Source: a phage | Strand: one strand, 5' to 3' | Sequence record: PZ386977.1 | Length of the DNA: 64,000 nucleotides | Shown here: piece by piece, positions 6,635 to 56,948 of the stretch | Layout: each line of letters opens with the position of its first letter | Position numbering within the stretch: the stretch's first letter is position 1 | Notes under the pieces: model-generated | What the model was told of the DNA's origin: nothing | Seen by the model: the letters and a program-made list of their open reading frames with translations, nothing else | The model's database searches: none | Translations under genes and position numbers: made by a program

Positions 6635-6715
6635 TTAATTTCCTTTAGACGAGTTATTGTCTTTTGTTTGTTGATGAACTTATTATACTCCAAATGGGAC
6701 CGGAGTCCCATTGCT

Positions 6716-16453: not shown

Positions 16454-16519
16454 ATTATTTTCCTCTGTTATTTTATTATCCAATGAGAGCATTATACTCT
16501 GCTCTCAAGAGTTTGTGCA

Positions 16520-16759
16520 TTATTCCGTGATAAGATAATGTAAATAGTTTGCTTGACGAACACTGATATCAACACCCATATCAAAGATACCTTTATAGAA
16601 CGGGTATTTGTTTTCAGTAGAATCTAGACTAAAAGCCTTTCCACCACAACTAACGGTAATAGCATCAGTTAAAGTGTCATATACAAACTTAATAGTTGAG
16701 CCATTCACTACGACTTCAAGACGTTTTTTCGATGTAATAACGTCTAATTCTTGTTCCAT
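16520..16759 (-). CDS. hypothetical protein
   Basis: 79-aa ORF. Confidence 0.45.
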   Translation of the reverse strand: MEQELDVITSKKRLEVVVNGSTIKFVYDTLTDAITVSCGGKAFSLDSTENKYPFYKGIFDMGVDISVRQANYLHYLITE

Positions 16760-28235: not shown

Positions 28236-29237
28236 TTATTTCAGTAAAGTTACTTCAGAGATTTCCTCCCAACCATCTTTATCAGTTGAAATAAAATCTG
28301 CTACATAAAGAGCCGTACGTAATGATACATTGCGAAGACGAGATACGTTAGCCTTCATCCAGGACAATGCTTTGTACGTTTCAGCATCAGTCAAGCCACG
28401 TTTCTGCATCATGTCAGTAGATAATATTACATCTTCAACTCGAACCATAATCTCTTCATTAGAGTGTACTCCAAGATCGAGATATACTGAACGAGATACT
28501 AAAGCTTGAAGGTGAGGAGCAAGTTTCGAACCACGTTCTAACTCTTTATCGATATCAACGTTTGTAATGAAAACGATAGTACCTTCAAACTCAAATTCTT
28601 TATCGATACCCTTATCATCAAGATAAGATGATGCAGTGCTCCAGCAAACTTTGCGTTTATCACCGGTATCTAATGCGGCTTTAAGAAGGTTCAGGATGTC
28701 CATATCCGAGAATACGTCAACGTCGTCGATTAAGAGAACGCTGTCTGCATCACGGTTGAGCCAAAGTTGTTCGTAAAGGCCAATACCAGAGATTTTACCA
28801 TTAATGCTTTTGTATTTGATGAAACCATTATCATTAGCACTATTAAGTGCTTTATCCAGAGAATACGTCTTACCAATACCGGCTGCACCTGAAATAATGA
28901 GTGAACGAATTTTGCCATCGATAATGCCATTCGTCATCATGTTCATTACTTTAAAGCGTTTGTTGATACGAGTTTTCATATCTTCAGTGCTTTCAACAAC
29001 TGCAACTGGTGTTGTCTCAACTCCTTCCATTACGATGTCTGATTTGAAGACCCATACTCCACGTTCAGAACCATCAATCATAACGAAAATTTTACCATCA
29101 CCTAAGTGGGAACATTCAGGATTAAGCTTTGCTGGGAACCAGGTCTTTGTGGCAACATAAGATCCAGAGATTTCGTTATTACGATAGATACCTTTTTTGA
29201 TTTGAACGTTGAACATTTTATTCTCCAATTTACTCAT
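28236..29237 (-). CDS. P-loop NTPase
   Basis: 333 aa; Walker A SGAAGIGKTYS, Walker B VLLIDDVD. Confidence 0.6.
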   Translation of the reverse strand: MSKLENKMFNVQIKKGIYRNNEISGSYVATKTWFPAKLNPECSHLGDGKIFVMIDGSERGVWVFKSDIVMEGVETTPVAVVESTEDMKTRINKRFKVMNMMTNGIIDGKIRSLIISGAAGIGKTYSLDKALNSANDNGFIKYKSINGKISGIGLYEQLWLNRDADSVLLIDDVDVFSDMDILNLLKAALDTGDKRKVCWSTASSYLDDKGIDKEFEFEGTIVFITNVDIDKELERGSKLAPHLQALVSRSVYLDLGVHSNEEIMVRVEDVILSTDMMQKRGLTDAETYKALSWMKANVSRLRNVSLRTALYVADFISTDKDGWEEISEVTLLK

Positions 29238-29305
29238 TTCGTTTCGATAGGTCTATAATAACATATCCTAAAAGCATGTACACTACTTTTTTTAAAATAT
29301 TTTAA

Positions 29306-29332
29306 CCCCCTAAAGGGACCCGAAGGTCCCCA
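29306..29332 (-). terminator. stem-loop module (GGGACC-UUCG-GGUCCC) after stop codon
   Basis: 27-mer identical to 47507..47533; no clean U-tract, so may be a processing/stability hairpin rather than a terminator. Confidence 0.4.
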
Positions 29333-29335
29333 CAT

Positions 29336-29602
29336 TTACTTATCGCACTTAGCAACATAATTAGGCATATCACAGAATACAGAGTGAGTAACTACTCTGC
29401 CCTTTGACCATGCTTCAGTTGCTTGTCCAGCCGTGCTATTAATATAGCTTGATTTGATATTCTCAATACCCTGAGAATGTGAAGCATTTACCGAACCATT
29501 GGAAGGCCCAGAAGACTGGTTACCACCAGCTCCTGCACCCGTGGTAGCACCAACAGAGAACGCCATCATTACTGCGAATAAACCAATTACTAATTTTTTC
29601 AT
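29336..29602 (-). CDS. small secreted protein
   Basis: 88 aa; signal peptide MKKLVIGLFAVMMAFSVGA; minus-strand TATAAATA late-promoter motif about 25 nt upstream of the ATG. Confidence 0.5.
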   Translation of the reverse strand: MKKLVIGLFAVMMAFSVGATTGAGAGGNQSSGPSNGSVNASHSQGIENIKSSYINSTAGQATEAWSKGRVVTHSVFCDMPNYVAKCDK

Positions 29603-31645: not shown

Positions 31646-31978
31646 TTAAAGTTTCAACAAAATTCACCAAATCATTCAGACAAGCATCAACCTGTTTTTC
31701 ATAAAAGTCTTCGTTATCATTTACTGCATGATAAGCTACATCATTCAAATCTGAATCGGCTTCACGTAAGTTACGGATAAGTTCCATCAATTTATTAGCT
31801 TGTTCACGGGTCATTTTACCATACTCGTTTCAATAAGATTCACTATGCCGTTTACCATGTTATAAGTAAACATCGGATAATTGTATTGTACTACAACATA
31901 AGCGATAAGCAAAAGTTTCATTTTGTTCTCCATTCGTTTTGGTAGGACTACTATAACATAATCCTACCAAGATGTAAA

Positions 31979-32439: not shown

Positions 32440-32466
32440 AAAAAGCCCCAACCATAAGGAAGGGGC
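32440..32466 (-). terminator. intrinsic terminator after rI
   Basis: minus-strand AGCCCCUUCCUUAUGGUUGGGGCU followed by UUUUU; near-copy of the 48203..48230 terminator. Confidence 0.55.
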
Positions 32467-38173: not shown

Positions 38174-38752
38174 TTAATTACCACGGGCTGCATTAGCAAC
38201 GGCGTAAGCGTACTGAACATTAGCGTCTTTAAATGTACCTTTAGAGGTATCTATTTCTGCCTTAAAGCCGCCTTTAGCCATAACATCGGCAAATTCTTTA
38301 CGGAAAGCCATTGCATCAAGACCTTTCCATGATGATTTATGCTTGGCAAATTCAAGACCAGCGAAATTGACCGCTTTAGCCAGTTTATTATCAATAACCC
38401 ATTTACCGGCTTTAGGCACAAACTTCGGGCCTTTTTGTTTAGAGAATAGTTTTAAATTCCATCGACGAAGGTCACTGTCTGCTTTAACAAAAGCTGCGTC
38501 TAAGTTACTAGCAACAACATCTTCAATATGGGCAAATTTAAGTCCGTCAACTTCAATATTTAGATCGTTACGCCAGCGAAGTCCTTCCCAAGCGAAGGCT
38601 TTAAAGTCGGAAGCCTTTGTAGCTAAGTACCGTTCAATAGGAGCTGTTTTAGGGTCAAAGCCGTTTCCGCCACGATAAGTCCACTCGTCCTTATTAATGC
38701 CTTGAGCTTTTCCTGCAAAGGCTTCGGCGATAAATTCTTTATACGTTTTCAT
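38174..38752 (-). CDS. internal head protein (IPIII-like) with capsid-targeting leader
   Basis: 192 aa; starts MKTYKEFIAE| (prohead-protease LxE-type site). Confidence 0.75.
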   Translation of the reverse strand: MKTYKEFIAEAFAGKAQGINKDEWTYRGGNGFDPKTAPIERYLATKASDFKAFAWEGLRWRNDLNIEVDGLKFAHIEDVVASNLDAAFVKADSDLRRWNLKLFSKQKGPKFVPKAGKWVIDNKLAKAVNFAGLEFAKHKSSWKGLDAMAFRKEFADVMAKGGFKAEIDTSKGTFKDANVQYAYAVANAARGN

Positions 38753-38777
38753 TTTGTTCCTATTTATTTAATTTATG

Positions 38778-39092
38778 TTATTCTTTAGGGAAGTTTTTAG
38801 AGTATGCGTCATAAAGTTTATTACCAATACGACGGAAGACTTTAGCTGCAAAACGGTTTTCAGGGTTTTTAATCATGATTTGCATCATGTAAGTTCCTGC
38901 ATCCGAAAGAGCTTCTTCGTAGTACCCATTAATTTCTTTAAGAGTCCTACGTTTACCGCCAGGACCATCAACGGTAATTTTCCATTTACCTGTAGAAGTG
39001 CGGCTCGGTGGCTCAACTTGTTCAATCCAAATATAACCACCTTCAACGCGTTGGTTGGCGGATTCTGCAATAAATTCTTTATACGTTTTCAT
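38778..39092 (-). CDS. internal head protein (IPII-like) with capsid-targeting leader
   Basis: 104 aa; starts MKTYKEFIAE. Confidence 0.75.
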   Translation of the reverse strand: MKTYKEFIAESANQRVEGGYIWIEQVEPPSRTSTGKWKITVDGPGGKRRTLKEINGYYEEALSDAGTYMMQIMIKNPENRFAAKVFRRIGNKLYDAYSKNFPKE

Positions 39093-39257
39093 TTTTGTTT
39101 CCTTGTTTGTTTTGATAGAGTAATTATACCATATTAATACTTAAGCGTAAACAATTTAAGCTTTACCGCCAGAAATAATTCCAAAGTTGTTAAAATCGTA
39201 TCCAATATCGTCAACATCCACTTTAGGGATAAATTCTTGATACATTTTCATTTTTCC

Positions 39258-39729: not shown

Positions 39730-40026
39730 CTATTTTTCTGAAGCGCCTGAAATATATTTTTCAAGACGTTGTTTCATCAGAGAGCCGTTCTTAGCGATTT
39801 CTTCCGGCTTATCGCACATACGTAACAAGGCTTCAAGCTTAGCGATATCACTGGTGCGCTCAAATTTGCGAGTATCTATCTTACTAGCAAGTTCAGAAAT
39901 ACGTGCTAATAGACTTTCGGCTTCAACCAAAGCTGCACCTAGCTTAGTTGCAAATGTGTCAGTAGCTTCGTTAAGAATAGATTCTGATAAAAATTCATTA
40001 TATGTTTTCATATATACGCTTTCCAA
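39730..40026 (-). CDS. internal-protein-like protein with capsid-targeting leader
   Basis: 98 aa; starts [10 protein letters not shown]. Confidence 0.7.
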
Positions 40027-42696: not shown

Positions 42697-42724
42697 AATA
42701 TTCTCCTCATGTTTTAATAGGACT

Positions 42725-42754
42725 ACTATAACATAGTCCTATAATTGTGTAAAC
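42725..42754 (-). promoter_or_regulatory. early promoter GTTTACA-N17-TATAGT embedded in ATAGGACT/AGTCCTAT palindrome
   Basis: minus-strand GTTTACACAATTATAGGACTATGTTATAGT. Confidence 0.55.
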
Positions 42755-44000: not shown

Positions 44001-44016
44001 TTGTTTTGATAGGACT

Positions 44017-44046
44017 ACTATAACATAGCCCTATCTTGTTGTAAAC
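44017..44046 (-). promoter_or_regulatory. early promoter GTTTACA-N17-TATAGT in palindrome (near-copy of 42725 and 50722 cassettes)
   Basis: GATAGGACTACTATAACATAGCCCTATC element. Confidence 0.55.
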
Positions 44047-45950: not shown

Positions 45951-46559
45951 TTATTTCAAAGAGTTAATATATTCTTGTACATCAGCAGAAGTGGTTTCGA
46001 CACCGGCTGGAGTGCCATTGAACGTTTCAACACGAGTCAGAGTGTCTTCGATATCAACCTTAGTCAGTGCAGCGATTTCAATTACATCATCAGCCGTAGA
46101 GATACCAAGGGCATTAGCTGCTCGAGTTTCACGAATGTATTCGAGTTTGATTGCCAGATTCTGACGAGCATCGTCAAGTTCAACCACCTTACGAGCAATT
46201 TCAATTCGCATAGCGGCATAACCGTCAGCTTTTGTATTAAGTTGTTCGGCAGTTCGACGATACAGAAGACCAAGCTTAGCATGCATGGTAACATCTTGTC
46301 CTTCAGCCAGGAGCTTACGAATTTCACGTTCCTTAGAAGCGGCTTGCTTGTTCTTTTCATTAACAAGTTCGCGAATACGTTTTTCTTCATTAATGGATTT
46401 AACAGAAGCCGTTTTTAGTTCTTTGATTTGGGTAATCAACTTATCTGCAGCTGCGTTATACTGTTCTTCGACAGTCAGATTTTTAGCCATAGCAGTACCC
46501 AGTTTAGTGCGGATGAATTCAACAAGTTTCTTCAGTGTGTTCATATTATTACCTTTCAA
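45951..46559 (-). CDS. coiled-coil protein (PspA/IM30-like?; tentative)
   Basis: 202 aa, heptad-rich helical sequence. Confidence 0.45.
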
Positions 46560-46614
46560 TTGGTTGTTTATTATCCAACGAGAGCATTATACTCTGCTCT
46601 CAAGAGTTTGTAAA

Positions 46615-46842
46615 TTATTTTTTAATCAAATTGACATAAAACTTGGCGTCTTCTGGGTGCATGCCTTCGCAGTATTCTTCAACCATGAACTTCTTAACAG
46701 CTTCATAAGGACCACTCAGATTAAGCTCAGTTGTCCAGAACTTGGAATCTTGGACTGAATCGATACGAACCTCAGGGTGTCGGTTGCGAATAACTTCTTC
46801 GGTGTATTCATAATCAACTACATCAATACTAACTTTAGCCAT
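46615..46842 (-). CDS. hypothetical protein
   Basis: 75-aa ORF. Confidence 0.45.
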   Translation of the reverse strand: MAKVSIDVVDYEYTEEVIRNRHPEVRIDSVQDSKFWTTELNLSGPYEAVKKFMVEEYCEGMHPEDAKFYVNLIKK

Positions 46843-47121: not shown

Positions 47122-47427
47122 TTAATTTTTCCAACTTAACAACTTGTAGTATCCTTCATTCATACGTGGTTTATCCCAAGAAATACTAATATATGATTCG
47201 CCATCAATAGAAGTCGCCGGGTTTTTCTCTACCGTAAGACCTTCACTTTCCAACCATTCAATAGTATTTGCGCATAAATCTGAAGAACACCTCATCGGAA
47301 ACTGGCAAGATTTTTCACCTTTAGATGCAGTGTTATACATCTTTTCTAAAATACGCTTTTGCACGTTTTTAAAAATAGTTTCAGCAGATTCTTCAGATTT
47401 TTTATTCAGTTCAGTGTAAAGACTCAT
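47122..47427 (-). CDS. hypothetical protein
   Basis: 101-aa ORF. Confidence 0.5.
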   Translation of the reverse strand: MSLYTELNKKSEESAETIFKNVQKRILEKMYNTASKGEKSCQFPMRCSSDLCANTIEWLESEGLTVEKNPATSIDGESYISISWDKPRMNEGYYKLLSWKN

Positions 47428-47506
47428 AATATTCTCCTCATGTTTTTATAGGTCTATAATAACACATCTAGGGAAGAAGTAAACAACTTTTTCAGTAAGT
47501 TATAGA

Positions 47507-47533
47507 CCCCCTAAAGGGACCCGAAGGTCCCCA
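47507..47533 (-). terminator. stem-loop module (GGGACC-UUCG-GGUCCC) after stop codon
   Basis: identical 27-mer to 29306..29332. Confidence 0.4.
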
Positions 47534-47537
47534 TTCT

Positions 47538-48158
47538 TTACTTACGAGTTTTTGCATACTGAGCAGCGTCAGCAGCCAAACGACCTGCCTGACGAAGTTT
47601 TTCTTTAATCGCATCGTGAAGTGGTTGAGTATACTTCAAACCTTCGATAGTCAAATAAAGACGATAAAGGTCTGGGGTATCAAGGTTGTTGATATGTTGG
47701 CCATTACGAAGACTGTTGAATTCACGAACGAGTGAAGATGTATCGGATTCAATATCACGAACAAGCGAAGATAGTTGTTTATATTTTTTTTCCAGGCTAG
47801 AAGTATCAAACTTAAGAGCAGGAGCTTTAGGAGTTGCTTTTACTTCCGGCTTAGGCTCAGGTTTTGCTTTAGGGGCCGCAGGTTTAGGAACGGTAGGAGC
47901 AGGTTTTACTTTAGGCGAACCCGATTTAGCAGAAACACCACCACTAACAATATCTTTGAATGCTTTAGAAGCTCTGTAATATTCTTTTTGGGTGGAAGTG
48001 TCGATACCGTACATGGCTTGAACGTTTTTGAAAAACTCTGTACTAGTTTTTGTACCAGAAATAGCATCGTAAGCAGCTTGCCATTTCTCTTTTGTCATAC
48101 GTACACCGGCTTCGGTGATTACTTCCGTTTCGGCTAAAAATTCATTAAAAGTATACAT
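47538..48158 (-). CDS. internal-protein-like protein with capsid-targeting leader and Pro/Ala/Lys-rich segment
   Basis: 206 aa; starts MYTFNEFLAE; KVKPAPTVPKPAAPKAKPEPKPEVKATPKAPALK low-complexity block. Confidence 0.65.
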   Translation of the reverse strand: MYTFNEFLAETEVITEAGVRMTKEKWQAAYDAISGTKTSTEFFKNVQAMYGIDTSTQKEYYRASKAFKDIVSGGVSAKSGSPKVKPAPTVPKPAAPKAKPEPKPEVKATPKAPALKFDTSSLEKKYKQLSSLVRDIESDTSSLVREFNSLRNGQHINNLDTPDLYRLYLTIEGLKYTQPLHDAIKEKLRQAGRLAADAAQYAKTRK

Positions 48159-48202: not shown

Positions 48203-48230
48203 AAAAAAGCCCCAACCTTTCGGAAGGGGC
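48203..48230 (-). terminator. intrinsic terminator ending the tRNA operon
   Basis: minus-strand GCCCCUUCCGAAAGGUUGGGGC followed by UUUUUU. Confidence 0.6.
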
Positions 48231-48239
48231 TATATACCT

Positions 48240-48420
48240 TGTCGGGGTTTCCACCTACTAAGGCAAGTGTTTGTACGAAACGCCGGGATTCGAACCCGGT
48301 TATTAAGCAGTTGACGCTACTCAATATTTTTAAAAGGCCATATCTCGACCATATCCGAACGTTCCGTCAAAAACGCTACTCGGCCTACGGCAAAGATATT
48401 TCCTCGAATCGATAATTATG
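48240..48420 (-). ncRNA. possible small stable RNA with tRNA-like 3' end (cf. T4 species 1/2 RNAs)
   Basis: canonical T-arm CCGGGUUCGAAUCCCGG at 48283..48299 followed by acceptor-like CGUUUCG, but no cloverleaf could be drawn by hand. Confidence 0.3.
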
Positions 48421-48534
48421 TGCGCCGTTTCTGCTGTGATGTAAGGGGATATTAACGAATCATAAAGATTTATTAAGACCAGTCCTTACTCAGGGAACAT
48501 CAGTCCGACGACTTGCCGGTAGCGACCCGGCTTC

Positions 48535-48897: not shown

Positions 48898-48974
<77 letters not shown>

Positions 48975-48978
48975 TATT

Positions 48979-49053
48979 TGGCGGACGTGATAGGATTCGA
49001 ACCTATAACCAATCGCTTAACAGGCGATCGCTCTGCCATTGAGCTACACATCC
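48979..49053 (-). tRNA. tRNA-Asn (anticodon GUU), CCA encoded
   Basis: anticodon loop CUGUUAA; T-arm AUAGG-UUCGAAU-CCUAU. Confidence 0.8.
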
Positions 49054-49057
49054 AAAT

Positions 49058-49144
49058 TGGTGGGGAGTGATGGAGTCGAACCACCCGAGTCGCAATGACA
49101 ATGGATTTACAGTCCACACCGCTACCTCTACGGGATAACTCCCC
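49058..49144 (-). tRNA. tRNA-Tyr (anticodon GUA), long variable arm, CCA encoded
   Basis: anticodon loop CUGUAAA; 87 nt; T-arm GGUGG-UUCGACU-CCAUC. Confidence 0.7.
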
Positions 49145-49156
49145 TAATTCATAATT

Positions 49157-49231
49157 TGGTGGCCCTGGGTGGAATTGAACCACCATCTGGCGATTATGAG
49201 TCGCTTGCTTGAACCTTCCAGCTACAGGGCC
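49157..49231 (-). tRNA. tRNA-Ile (anticodon CAU, lysidine-type) or elongator tRNA-Met, CCA encoded
   Basis: anticodon loop CUCAUAA; sits at the T4 tRNA-Ile position. Confidence 0.7.
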
Positions 49232-49232
49232 T

Positions 49233-49308
49233 TGGTGCTGATTGACGGAATCGAACCGCCGACCTTCTCATTACAAGTGAGTTGCTCTACCTACTGAGCT
49301 AAATCAGC
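49233..49308 (-). tRNA. tRNA-Thr (anticodon UGU), CCA encoded
   Basis: anticodon loop CUUGUAA; acceptor GCUGAUU/AAUCAGC. Confidence 0.8.
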
Positions 49309-49313
49309 AAAAC

Positions 49314-49403
49314 TGGCGGAGGCGATAGGATTTGAACCTATGAGTCGCCGGAGCGACTGCCGGTTTTCAAGACCGGTGCATTAAACCACTCTGCCACGCC
49401 TCC
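49314..49403 (-). tRNA. tRNA-Ser (anticodon UGA), long variable arm, CCA encoded
   Basis: anticodon loop CUUGAAA; 90 nt. Confidence 0.8.
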
Positions 49404-49405
49404 AG

Positions 49406-49479
49406 TCTCCATACAAGGATTTGAACCTTGGGCCTCCTGATCCCAAATCAGGCGCTCTACCAAACTGAGCTACACGGAG
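49406..49479 (-). tRNA. tRNA-Pro (anticodon UGG)
   Basis: anticodon loop UUUGGGA; T-arm CAAGG-UUCAAAU-CCUUG; no encoded CCA. Confidence 0.75.
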
Positions 49480-49489
49480 TAAATTAAAT

Positions 49490-49563
<74 letters not shown>

Positions 49564-49568
49564 AAATT

Positions 49569-49655
49569 TGGTGCGAGAAGTGGGACTCGAACCCACAAGG
49601 AAATCATTCCGCAGCATTTTAAGTGCTGTGCCTTTACCAATTTGGCCATTCTCGC
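49569..49655 (-). tRNA. tRNA-Leu (anticodon UAA), long variable arm, CCA encoded
   Basis: anticodon loop CUUAAAA; 87 nt. Confidence 0.8.
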
Positions 49656-49656
49656 G

Positions 49657-49729
49657 CTGGGAATAAAGGACTCGAACCTTTGCATCCTGGAATCAAAATC
49701 CAGTGCCTTACCAACTTGGCTAATTCCCA
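49657..49729 (-). tRNA. tRNA-Gln (anticodon UUG)
   Basis: anticodon loop UUUUGAU; acceptor UGGGAAU/AUUCCCA; abuts tRNA-Leu (dimeric precursor as in T4). Confidence 0.8.
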
Positions 49730-50705: not shown

Positions 50706-50721
50706 TTGTTTTGATAGGACT

Positions 50722-50751
50722 ACTATAACATAGTCCTATCGGCATGTAAAC
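50722..50751 (-). promoter_or_regulatory. early promoter GTTTACA-N17-TATAGT embedded in perfect 10-bp-arm palindrome
   Basis: GATAGGACTACTATAACATAGTCCTATC at 50713..50740; the -35 overlaps the upstream stop codon. Confidence 0.55.
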
Positions 50752-51062
50752 TATTTTATGCCTTTAGATGAAATAGTATTCTGGCGTTTGACCCCTGTTT
50801 GTGAAAAATCGTGGTTATCGATTTGGTCGACTCGCATAACACCAAATGCAGATTTAATTTTAGCCTTTGAACCTTTTTTGATACTAATTACCATATAAGT
50901 ATCATTTTTCTTATATTCGAAATTTGTTACTTCAACGCCTTGATTAGAAATTGACTTAATAATAGCATTAGCGTATTCATCATCTAACGGGCCGTTAGTG
51001 TTAATAACAAAATTTTTATCCGCTTTAGTAGCTTCCGCGATAAACTCTTGATACGTTTTCAT
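50751..51062 (-). CDS. internal protein I-like protein with capsid-targeting leader
   Basis: 103 aa; starts MKTYQEFIAE; position next to 57B as T4 ipI. Confidence 0.7.
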   Translation of the reverse strand: MKTYQEFIAEATKADKNFVINTNGPLDDEYANAIIKSISNQGVEVTNFEYKKNDTYMVISIKKGSKAKIKSAFGVMRVDQIDNHDFSQTGVKRQNTISSKGIK

Positions 51063-51096
51063 TTTATTTCCTTGAGGTTGTTTATTTGATAGGATG

Positions 51097-51126
51097 ATAG
51101 TATCACACCATCATCCTTATGTAAAC
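51097..51126 (-). promoter_or_regulatory. early promoter GTTTACA-N17-TACTAT
   Basis: minus-strand GTTTACATAAGGATGATGGTGTGATACTAT upstream of 51062 start. Confidence 0.5.
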
Positions 51127-55215: not shown

Positions 55216-56948
55216 TGGAAATGATTAGCAGTAGCCTTAATTGGTTCGTGGGTGTTGTCGAGGACAGAATGGACCCATTAAAACAAGGGCGAGTTCGAGT
55301 TCGAGTCGTTGGTCTTCATCCGGCACAGAGGGCACAAGGTGATGTACAAGGTATTCCTACAGAAAAACTTCCGTGGATGACTGTTATTCAACCTATTACG
55401 TCTGCATCAATGTCAGGTATTGGTGGTTCTGTTACAGGTCCTGTTGAAGGAACTCGAGTATATGGTCATTTCTTAGACAAATGGAAAACAAACGGGATTG
55501 TACTTGGTACATACGGCGGAATAGTACGTGAAAAGCCTAATAGACTTGAAGGTTTTTCAGACCCGACAGGCCAGTATCCGCGACGTTTAGGTAATGATAC
55601 GAACGTATTAAACCAAGGTGGTGAAGCTGGTTATTATTCAAACTCTAACGTAATTCAAGATAACAACTTGGATTATGGTATAAACCCAGATGATACAGAT
55701 TTAGCAAATATTCCAGAAGATGATGACCCTAATTTTACAATAACAGAAATGTTACGTCGTGACGAAGGTCTTCGTGATAAAGTGTATTGGGACCATCTCG
55801 GATATCCTACCGTAGGTATTGGACACCTTATCGTAATGGAAAAGACCCGAGATATGTCTCGAATTAATAAATTGTTATCCGATCAAGTAGGGCGTGAAGT
55901 AACAGGAAATCCCGGGACTATTACATTAGAAGAAGCAACAGCGTTATTTGAGAAAGACCTTGCTAAGATGCAGAAAGACATTCGTTCTAATTCTAAAGTA
56001 GGTCCTGTTTATGCTAAAATGAACAGGTCTCGTCAAATGGCATTAGAAAACATGTGTTTCCAAATGGGCGTTGGTGGTGTAGCAAAATTCAATACTATGC
56101 TTAAAGCAATGGCCACAGGTGATTGGAAAACCGCATACAAATCTGGGCGCGATTCATTATGGTTCCAACAGACTAAAGGACGCGCTTCACGTGTAACAAC
56201 AATTATTTTAACCGGTAACATGGAATCATACGGCGTTCCTGTTAAAACGCCGCCTTCACCAGGAGTTGGTGCCGATTTAGTTACTAGAAATACCGATCCG
56301 GAAGACCCGGCTGGTCCTCCTGTTCCATTAGATTCACGTATACTTTTTAAAGAACCGGAATCAAGTTATCGTGGTGAGTATCCATACGTTCATGCTATGG
56401 AAACAGAAAGTGGTCATATCCAAGAATTTGACGATACTCCAGGTAATGAACGTTATCGATTAGTTCATCCAACAGGGTCATATGAGGAAGTTTCTCCGGC
56501 AGGCCGTCGTACTCGTAAAACCGTAGAAGACCTTTTTGACATCACTAATGGCGATGGGAACTTCTTGATTTCTGGCGATAAGCTTGTTAACGTTGGTGCT
56601 AATGAAATATATTATAACATGGCAGACCGCCTCCATCAAATAGACGGCAATGACACAATCTTTATTCGTGGTAACCAATCTAAAACTGTTGAAGGCGATG
56701 GAACTCTTTATGTTAAGGGTAATATCAAAATAGTTGTTGACGGAAATGCAGATATTCTTGTTAAAGGTGATGCTAAAACTCAGGTCGAAGGGAATCATGA
56801 TTACACCGTCAACGGAAACGTTAAATGGACTGTTAATGGTAATGTTGATATGACTGTTGCCGGGGATTGGGCAGAAACAATGTCTACAATGAGCTCAGTA
56901 GCTTCAGGACAATACACTGTTGACGGATCTCGTATTGATATTGGGTAA
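55215..56948 (+). CDS. 5: baseplate hub / tail lysozyme gp5
   Basis: 577 aa; OB-fold N-terminus, lysozyme domain ITEMLRRDEGLRDKVYWDHLGYPTVGIGHL, C-terminal VxGxxxxx beta-helix repeats. Confidence 0.95.
   Translation: MEMISSSLNWFVGVVEDRMDPLKQGRVRVRVVGLHPAQRAQGDVQGIPTEKLPWMTVIQPITSASMSGIGGSVTGPVEGTRVYGHFLDKWKTNGIVLGTYGGIVREKPNRLEGFSDPTGQYPRRLGNDTNVLNQGGEAGYYSNSNVIQDNNLDYGINPDDTDLANIPEDDDPNFTITEMLRRDEGLRDKVYWDHLGYPTVGIGHLIVMEKTRDMSRINKLLSDQVGREVTGNPGTITLEEATALFEKDLAKMQKDIRSNSKVGPVYAKMNRSRQMALENMCFQMGVGGVAKFNTMLKAMATGDWKTAYKSGRDSLWFQQTKGRASRVTTIILTGNMESYGVPVKTPPSPGVGADLVTRNTDPEDPAGPPVPLDSRILFKEPESSYRGEYPYVHAMETESGHIQEFDDTPGNERYRLVHPTGSYEEVSPAGRRTRKTVEDLFDITNGDGNFLISGDKLVNVGANEIYYNMADRLHQIDGNDTIFIRGNQSKTVEGDGTLYVKGNIKIVVDGNADILVKGDAKTQVEGNHDYTVNGNVKWTVNGNVDMTVAGDWAETMSTMSSVASGQYTVDGSRIDIG

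Follow-up and report, generated by a model that had tools for sequence, protein, structure and literature searches.

In a 64,000-nt stretch of phage DNA (sequence record PZ386977.1; this whole stretch is the window below), one hairpin-forming sequence stands behind two unrelated genes, which raises the question of how it came to be there twice and whether it ends transcription or does something else to the RNA. The source phage is a Mosigvirus (a T-even relative of the RB69/JS09/mar005p1 type), and many records are 97-99% identical to the window.

Two copies of a UUCG hairpin ahead of early promoters

An initial annotation had placed an identical 27-mer after two unrelated genes, each time a few nucleotides past a stop codon and just upstream of an early promoter, and had described a 6-bp stem with a UUCG loop in the minus-strand RNA; all of this held up. 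We found that the 27-mer CCCCCTAAAGGGACCCGAAGGTCCCCA occurs exactly at 29306-29332 and 47507-47533 (copies A and B, at sites A and B; Table 1), that the exact identity of the two copies extends to 28 nt (29305-29332 and 47506-47533), and that the number of matches expected from shuffled sequence is 0. No further copy was found in the window when up to 3 mismatches were allowed. On the − (coding) strand, the 28-nt block reads U-GGGGACC-UUCG-GGUCCC-UUUAGGGGG-U, and the RNA folds into a G/C-rich stem of 6 Watson-Crick pairs and one G·U under a UUCG loop with a C-G closing pair; the ΔG for the hairpin alone is −10.8 to −12.4 kcal/mol. Both copies begin 4-5 nt past the TAA stop of an upstream − strand ORF, and at both the end of the G-run is 22 nt upstream of the −35 hexamer. 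Copy A lies between the VR7-ORF099c-like ORF and nrdC.10, and copy B lies between the JS98-orf135-like ORF and the RB69ORF146c homologue, just beyond the tRNA cluster; a search for Pfam domains in the two upstream ORFs (88 aa and 206 aa) found none. Sites A and B are 74% identical over 106 nt, and they differ in the stretch that separates the hairpin block from the promoter.

Table 1. Coordinates of the two hairpin sites, their genes and the second hairpin type in the window
Feature	Position	Strand	Details
Copy A	29305-29332	−	5' arm GGGGACC 29331-29325; loop UUCG 29324-29321; 3' arm GGUCCC(U) 29320-29314; tail UUUAGGGGG 29314-29306
Copy B	47506-47533	−	5' arm 47532-47526; loop 47525-47522; 3' arm 47521-47515; tail 47515-47507
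Early promoter A	29255-29283	−	−35 GTGTAC 29283-29278; 17-nt spacer; −10 TATTAT 29260-29255
Early promoter B	47456-47484	−	−35 GTTTAC 47484-47479; 17-nt spacer; −10 TATTAT 47461-47456; SD, ATG at 47427
88-aa cargo ORF	29336-29602	−	VR7 ORF099c-like; phrog_2243 (unknown-function PHROG); stop 4 nt before copy A
206-aa cargo ORF	47538-48158	−	JS98 orf135-like; phrog_2280 (unknown-function PHROG); stop 5 nt before copy B
nrdC.10 homologue, 333 aa	28236-29237	−	conserved gene served by promoter A
RB69ORF146c homologue, 101 aa	47122-47427	−	gene served by promoter B
Second-type hairpin after rI	32440-32466	−	AGCCCCUUCC-UUAU-GGUUGGGGCU + U5
Early promoter after rI hairpin		−	−35 GTTTAC 32428-32423; −10 TATAGT 32405-32400
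Second-type hairpin, end of tRNA / tRNA-like region	48203-48230	−	GAAA loop, U6

Promoter A belongs to the promoter repeat family D4 and is followed by AGACCUAUC, the SD GGAG and then the nrdC.10 ATG at 29237. Promoter B resembles the promoter that follows gene 32 in relatives (NRG-P0074, typing phage 6), with an identity of about 92%. The string AGACCUAU is common to both sites after the −10, ahead of the SD and ATG. In a promoter-early stem-loop (PeSL), as defined by Arbiol et al. 2010 (PMC2839356) and Comeau et al. 2014 (PMC4122927), a stem-loop and an AT-rich stretch are joined to a σ70-like early promoter, with the SD and ATG of the downstream gene at the end, and we found all of the sequence-level PeSL features at sites A and B. 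The extended promoter match is (G)TGTACA-N17-TATTAT at A and (G)TTTACT-N17-TATTAT at B, set beside a T4/PST promoter consensus of TTTACW-N17-TAYWAT (PMC4122927); the AT-rich stretch is UUAAAAUAUUUUAAAAAAAGUA at A and UCUAUAACUUACUGAAAAAGUU, which is less AT-rich, at B; and the SD and start codon at the 3' end are GGAGAAUAAAAUG (nrdC.10) and GAGGAGAAUAUUAUG (ORF146c homologue).

From their sequences, we consider it likely that the two sites are composite intergenic cassettes of the PeSL type in a T-even-like phage, which are built of portable parts and in which the hairpin is mainly a stabiliser and at most a weak terminator. In such a cassette, the very stable C(UUCG)G hairpin would set the 3' limit of the RNA from the upstream gene, and the strong early promoter 22 nt downstream would restart transcription and so guarantee expression of the next gene.

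Two other structures were considered and rejected. If the 3' arm paired with the G-run instead (CCC-UUUA-GGG), the stem would have 3 G-C pairs and some wobbles, as against the −11 to −12 kcal/mol of the UUCG hairpin; this pairing is possible in every variant, yet it is never adopted by the MFE or centroid structures, and judging by the predicted folds such an alternative is not credible as a switch. A bidirectional terminator was rejected because the + strand T-tail scan is passed by site B only, and marginally, and is failed by site A. Copy B, unlike copy A, has its UUCG hairpin and tail bracketed by a 6-bp inverted repeat, GUAAGU…ACUUAC (47491-47546, − strand), of which the stop codon is part; this repeat brings the MFE down to −18 kcal/mol. 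A search of Rfam at the gathering threshold returned tRNAs only and no family for the hairpin element; at E≤1 there was nothing at site A, and near site B there were two far-sub-threshold chance matches, away from the hairpin.

Termination and the G-run tail

The initial annotation had also noted that the hairpin has no U-tract, which is essentially right: the stem is followed by three U and then AGGGGGU, so that UUUAGGGGG falls short of a U-tract (for example at least 5 U in 8 nt), and a consensus terminator / T-tract scan of the − strand does not call the UUCG hairpin. Copies A and B thus differ from intrinsic terminators in lacking the defining U-tract. When hairpin and T-tail are combined in a discriminant (a formula after d'Aubenton-Carafa 1990, which is a rough guide only), all modules with a G-run tail score below 0, and the window's other hairpins and the canonical ones of relatives score above 0. 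The proposal that the UUCG hairpins may serve in RNA processing or stabilisation rather than as terminators is reasonable and fits the sequence (three U and a G5 run, a negative discriminant and no T-tract call). The three proximal U can support some termination, and the sequence suggests weak activity of the module hairpins as terminators. Because UUUAGGGGGU stands in for the canonical U-tract, we infer that the hairpin would mainly block 3'-to-5' exonucleases and would at best terminate or pause transcription weakly and leakily; transcripts from upstream would probably continue past it, and the upstream message would gain stability.

E. coli REP elements are repeated stable intergenic hairpins without a U-tract that are thought to block 3' exonucleases, stabilise the upstream message and permit read-through. 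Newbury, Higgins et al. reportedly described such intercistronic 3'-stabiliser hairpins (REP) in 1987. The likeness is an analogy of mechanism only: REP sequences are unrelated to the modules here, longer, host-chromosomal and not coupled to promoters. C(UUCG)G tetraloop hairpins of T4 mRNA are said to have been described by Tuerk et al. in 1988. It was in mRNA of T4 that the C(UUCG)G hairpin was originally identified (PMC4371310). Such hairpins are a textbook feature of T4, and the modules resemble them in their loop, closing pair and intercistronic location. A supposed occurrence of the same hairpin after gene 23 of T4 proved wrong, since T4 has GGGAACC-UUCG-GGUUCCC-U6; an exact match to the 21-nt core was found in RB68-type Tequatroviruses. 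A literature search for Term-seq or 3'-end maps of the T4 family found nothing usable, and a T4 post-transcriptional review does not discuss these hairpins.

The modules could instead be ordinary efficient Rho-independent terminators, in which the CUUCGG hairpin and three U suffice, perhaps with NusA or a phage-modified RNA polymerase, and the G-run is irrelevant. The hairpins do stand directly after stop codons and before promoters, the stem-loops of RB49 PeSLs terminated in a lacZ reporter (PMC2839356), and prediction programs have named homologous hairpins terminators. The RB69 homologue of copy A (55313-55326, 'RB69ORF102c<--nrdC.11', 5 bp) is a TransTerm-predicted terminator with confidence 100 (Nolan 2006, PMC1524935), the rI hairpin ('mobD.2a<--rI' in RB69) and the gene-41 hairpin are in the same 2006 TransTerm list (PMC1524935), the related gene-41 hairpin is called a terminator by TransTermHP and WebGeSTer, and ARNOLD also annotates homologous hairpins in this way. 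The hairpin core is moreover canonical in most other phages: the bare 16-nt core occurs at at least 120 loci among unrelated viral contigs, in 86 of 120 the 8 nt that follow include at least 6 T, and by this count the core is usually a canonical terminator hairpin elsewhere. However, the modules have only 3 U before AGGGGG, the RB69 and gene-41 variants have no U outside the stem (their U are paired with upstream A), the T-tract scan and the discriminant are both negative, and the tail is kept behind several stems, which argues against an irrelevant G-run. We therefore think it unlikely that these are efficient terminators. RB69-type hairpins are routinely labelled "terminator" despite having no U-tract, and they may not terminate, which is an issue for annotation.

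We found that the tail UUUAGGGGGU is kept behind at least 4 different stems in two genera (Mosigvirus and Dhakavirus). It follows GGGGACC in this window, GGGGAC at site B of JS09, GGGCC in RB69, LF82-5, phiE142 and an unrelated 162-kb contig, and, in the Dhakavirus JS98, where the module comes after the homologue of the 206-aa ORF, AGGAGAC whose loop is UUUG. In the 162-kb contig, the last G of the tail doubles as the first base of the −35 GTTTAC. Related tails are UUUCGGGC and, joined directly to the −35 after gene 41, UUUCGGGG. The tail moves along with the hairpin and not with the promoter. Runs of five G are rare: they number two on the − strand of the window, both of them the tail, and four on the early strand of JS09, two of them the tail. 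TTTAGGGGG occurs in the whole JS09 genome only at the two tail sites, and TTCGGG(N)CCCTTTAGGGGG occurs in IMG/VR at four loci only, all in T-even relatives. The same stem with a normal U-tract is found in Tequatrovirus G4498 after gene 43 and in VR25 after gene 32, and in VR25 the U6 tract (GGGGACC-UUCG-GGUCCC-UUUUUUAUUUU) is in the same AAAAAGUAGUGUACA promoter context; because of this, the window module looks like a canonical terminator whose U-tract got interrupted by AGGGGGUUAAAA. In T6, the terminator between nrdC.11 and nrdC.10 has a tract of U7. Compact versions without the AT-rich spacer are present at two loci: in L152 (IMGVR_UViG_2706796796) the G-run is joined to the −35 (…UUUAGGGG-GTTTAC), and in L158 (SA35RD, downstream of gene 41) the junction reads …UUUCGGG-GTTTAC. 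The G-run may thus go back to promoter-proximal sequence.

A further reading takes the tail itself as a functional RNA signal, either an orphan SD-like site for the 30S subunit or a protein or a hairpin-dependent pause, which together with the hairpin would form a distinct intercistronic regulatory element. Its identity behind differing stems in Mosigvirus and Dhakavirus and its share of the G5 runs are in keeping with this, as is its predicted anti-SD pairing of −10.5 kcal/mol (about rank 30 of the 63,990 10-mers). In contrast, neither a start codon nor a conserved ORF comes after the tail, the UUUCGGGC and UUUCGGGG of related modules are poorer SD mimics, and with a background identity of about 73% and a small, hand-picked sample of variants the conserved 10-mer is not overwhelming. 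A small ORF started from the SD-like tail was rejected: ATG, GTG and TTG are absent at a suitable distance, and the frames vary between sites and phages. We judge a functional tail to be improbable. Similarly doubtful is that the tail marks a distinct Mosig-/Dhakavirus intercistronic class, in which a terminator hairpin has its U-tract deliberately interrupted by an anti-SD-matching G-run and works as a regulated attenuator/stabiliser, with polymerase reading through, the upstream RNA stabilised and/or the 30S subunit or a phage protein recruited. The conserved tail behind covarying stems is the sole element here that is new, and only mildly so. If the G-run tail proves functional, it would be a new kind of read-through/stabiliser signal in the control of phage gene expression; otherwise it is ordinary.

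Selection on the stem and reuse of UUCG hairpins

When nine module variants (a small, hand-picked sample) were aligned, 4 of the 7 stem pairs had compensatory changes and 95% of the cells were paired. None of 500 shuffles scored as high, and slid registers scored much lower. On this covariation, we take the stem to be under structural selection.

Hairpins of the C(UNCG)G kind are over-represented in these genomes. With stems of at least 5 bp, there are 28 of them in the complete JS09 genome as compared to 2.9±1.7 in Markov simulations, an enrichment of about 10-fold, and 8 were observed in the window where 1.1 were expected. Individual stems recur: JS09 has four copies of the GGGAGAC/GUCUCCC stem and two copies of the GGGGAC/GUCCCC stem, one of which follows rIIB and carries U7, the other being at site B and carrying the G-run tail. 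Because such a small repertoire of stems is reused, part of the identity between copies A and B could come from convergent selection and not from copying. In the regA-43 intergenic region (6693-6712, − strand), there is another non-canonical C(UNCG)G hairpin, AAUGGGAC-UCCG-GUCCCAUU, that is followed directly by UGGAGUAUAAUA and has no U-tract; its counterpart in JS09, at 138049 between regA and gene 43, has a UUCG loop.

Exchange of hairpins, promoters and cargo genes among relatives

To compare breakpoints, a 601-nt query centred on copy A and a copy B query were run against 50,697 phage records with BLAST. The full site-A arrangement was found in 96 records and the full site-B arrangement in 72. 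At site A, homology starts at query position 283 (the stop codon / hairpin 5' edge) in LF82-5, TH58, SF and Shf125875 and at 345 (the −35) in RB69 and AV114. At site B, it starts at 331 (the gap from hairpin to −35) in p000y, moha and others and at 360 (the gap from −35 to −10) in phiE142, and it ends at 380 (just past the −10) in the JS98 group. The breakpoints in relatives coincide with the internal boundaries of the module.

The cargo genes vary as well. The 88-aa ORF is missing in RB69, LF82-5, TH58 and others, and p000y, moha, phiE142 and others have a different gene in place of the 206-aa ORF. At site A no relative is closer than p000y (99.2%), yet p000y lacks the site-B cargo, and in LF82-5 site B is present and the site-A cargo is missing; whether an upstream ORF and hairpin are found at one site does not depend on the other site. 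Among 19 nrdC.10-anchored loci in IMG/VR, the promoter and gene are conserved and the upstream gene varies by lineage, and the junction takes one of three forms: it lacks a hairpin, has a canonical UUCG terminator with another stem, or has a hairpin with three U plus a G-run. The site-B anchor gene is represented in IMG/VR by 3 loci only, as there are few Mosigviruses there.

Hairpins and promoters also meet in other combinations. RB69, LF82-5 and phiE142 have a GGGCC-UUCG-GGCCC version right after nrdC.11, and in NRG-P0074 and typing phage 6 the site-B-like promoter after gene 32 sits behind a different hairpin. In p000y, the site-B promoter is preceded by another gene and a GCCCC-type hairpin, in a module that is near-identical to the rI hairpin of the window; in p000y-type phages, GCCCC-type hairpins stand on both sides of the site-B cargo. 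In RB69 and a phiE142-like contig, an extra ORF lies between two copies of the ...AUGUUAUUAUAGACCUAUC promoter; by its arrangement, an ORF bracketed in this way is a classic PeSL insertion signature. From the breakpoints and these junctions in relatives, we therefore read hairpin modules, promoter modules and cargo ORFs as assorting separately. The view of the initial annotation that these are portable 3'-end/promoter junction cassettes is thus well supported by the breakpoints, the independent cargo and the reassorting hairpins and promoters, and the idea is already published as the PeSL concept. In PeSL-type cassettes, hairpins, promoters and small upstream ORFs would swap between sites and between phages by recombination in short shared sequences, and the same 28-mer would stand behind two unrelated genes because of such recombination. 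In JS09, the stem is GGGGACC/GGUCCC at site A and GGGGAC/GUCCCC at site B, and because these are not identical, the exact identity of copies A and B is specific to the lineage of the window's genome. A metagenome phage in IMG/VR also has the two identical copies.

Breakpoints of this kind could alternatively point to a DNA-level site, a cruciform-forming or G/C-run sequence that is the target of a homing or recombination nuclease and through which the neighbouring ORF is mobilised. One site-A breakpoint lies exactly at the hairpin 5' edge, and Arbiol et al. speculated that GGGG...CCCC stem-loops might be a protein target and pointed out GGGC/GCCC motifs at T4 deletion endpoints (PMC2839356). 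However, the breakpoints are spread over at least 5 positions across the hairpin and promoter, as homology-driven exchange predicts, a nuclease gene is linked to neither copy, and the compensatory stem changes and strand-specific C(UUCG)G loop indicate selection on RNA. A linked homing endonuclease or recombinase was rejected as a candidate, such domains being absent from the neighbouring ORFs. A DNA-level site seems to us very improbable.

The preferred reading, PeSL-type cassettes, can be set against the PeSLs described so far. PeSLs cluster in hyperplastic regions next to small ORFs of unknown function, and their role in modular shuffling through recombination between copies has been proposed and partly shown through mini-circle detection (PMC2839356, PMC4122927). 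Sites A and B likewise have a stem-loop upstream of an early promoter, small ORFs of a plastic region, indel and replacement breakpoints inside the element and repeats within the genome. Unlike the described PeSLs, the modules here have a C(UUCG)G hairpin with a conserved UUUAGGGGGU tail, and hairpin and promoter assort separately; moreover, PeSLs have been reported from RB49/phi1, T4/PST and KVP40/nt-1 and not from RB69/JS09-type phages (PMC2839356, PMC4122927). The two sites illustrate at sequence level, in a group outside the original PeSL papers, how separately exchangeable hairpin and promoter modules carry small accessory genes around T4-like genomes. The cargo ORFs also recall lambdoid morons, as small accessory ORFs with their own transcription signals inserted between conserved genes. 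The novel ORFs of T4-like phages have a phage-like GC content and are not typical morons (Nolan et al., PMC1524935), and, unlike morons, an ORF here brings or abuts a hairpin only and uses shared promoter modules.

A second terminator type (GCCCC...GGGGC with a U-tract) had been described as likewise duplicated in the window. The pair is real, with a common interrupted stem AGCCCC-UU-CC/GG-UU-GGGGCU and a T-run; however, the two copies are not identical, as their loops are UUAU and GAAA and they share 86% identity over 35 nt. Directly after the tRNA-region hairpin is a T4 late-promoter-like TATAAATA (48201-48194, − strand), and because it lies about 35 nt upstream of the ATG of the 206-aa ORF, this site-B cargo gene may be transcribed late in addition to being reached by read-through. 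Between the tRNA cluster (10 tRNAs, 48898-49729) and this hairpin is an unannotated stretch (about 48235-48530, − strand) that contains a T-arm-like CCGGGUUCGAAUCCCGG and in which neither ARAGORN nor Rfam makes a call. Homologues of the small stable RNAs that follow T4 tRNA genes may be located there.

Other repeats in the window also involve promoters and stem-loops. Early promoters on the − strand at 31939-31970, 42710-42745, 44008-44035, 50713-50740 and 51091-51117 have a 10-13-bp inverted repeat (for example GAUAGGACUA-UGUUAUAG-UAGUCCUAUC) around the −10 TATAGT, and they belong to repeat families D1 and D3, with 4-5 copies. These TATAGT-bracketing repeats match the PeSL subclass 'stem-loop overlapping the −10 box' of Arbiol et al. 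(PMC2839356). A 66-nt direct repeat, 86% identical between 16459-16524 and 46554-46619, contains a hairpin UGAGAGCA-GAGUAUAA-UGCUCUCA whose loop holds TATAAT and which has a TTTACA −35 upstream of it; by its composition this is another repeated promoter/stem-loop module. The 38-nt repeat family D2 has up to 7 copies that are 66-89% identical (38721-38758, 39061-39098, 39220-39257, 39980-40017 and 51031-51068; also 9345 and 48127). The D2 repeats span the start codons and first ~10 codons of small − strand ORFs (…AUGAAAACGUAUAAAGAAUUUAUCGC…), which suggests that these ORFs are a paralogous family of small proteins with a common N-terminus.
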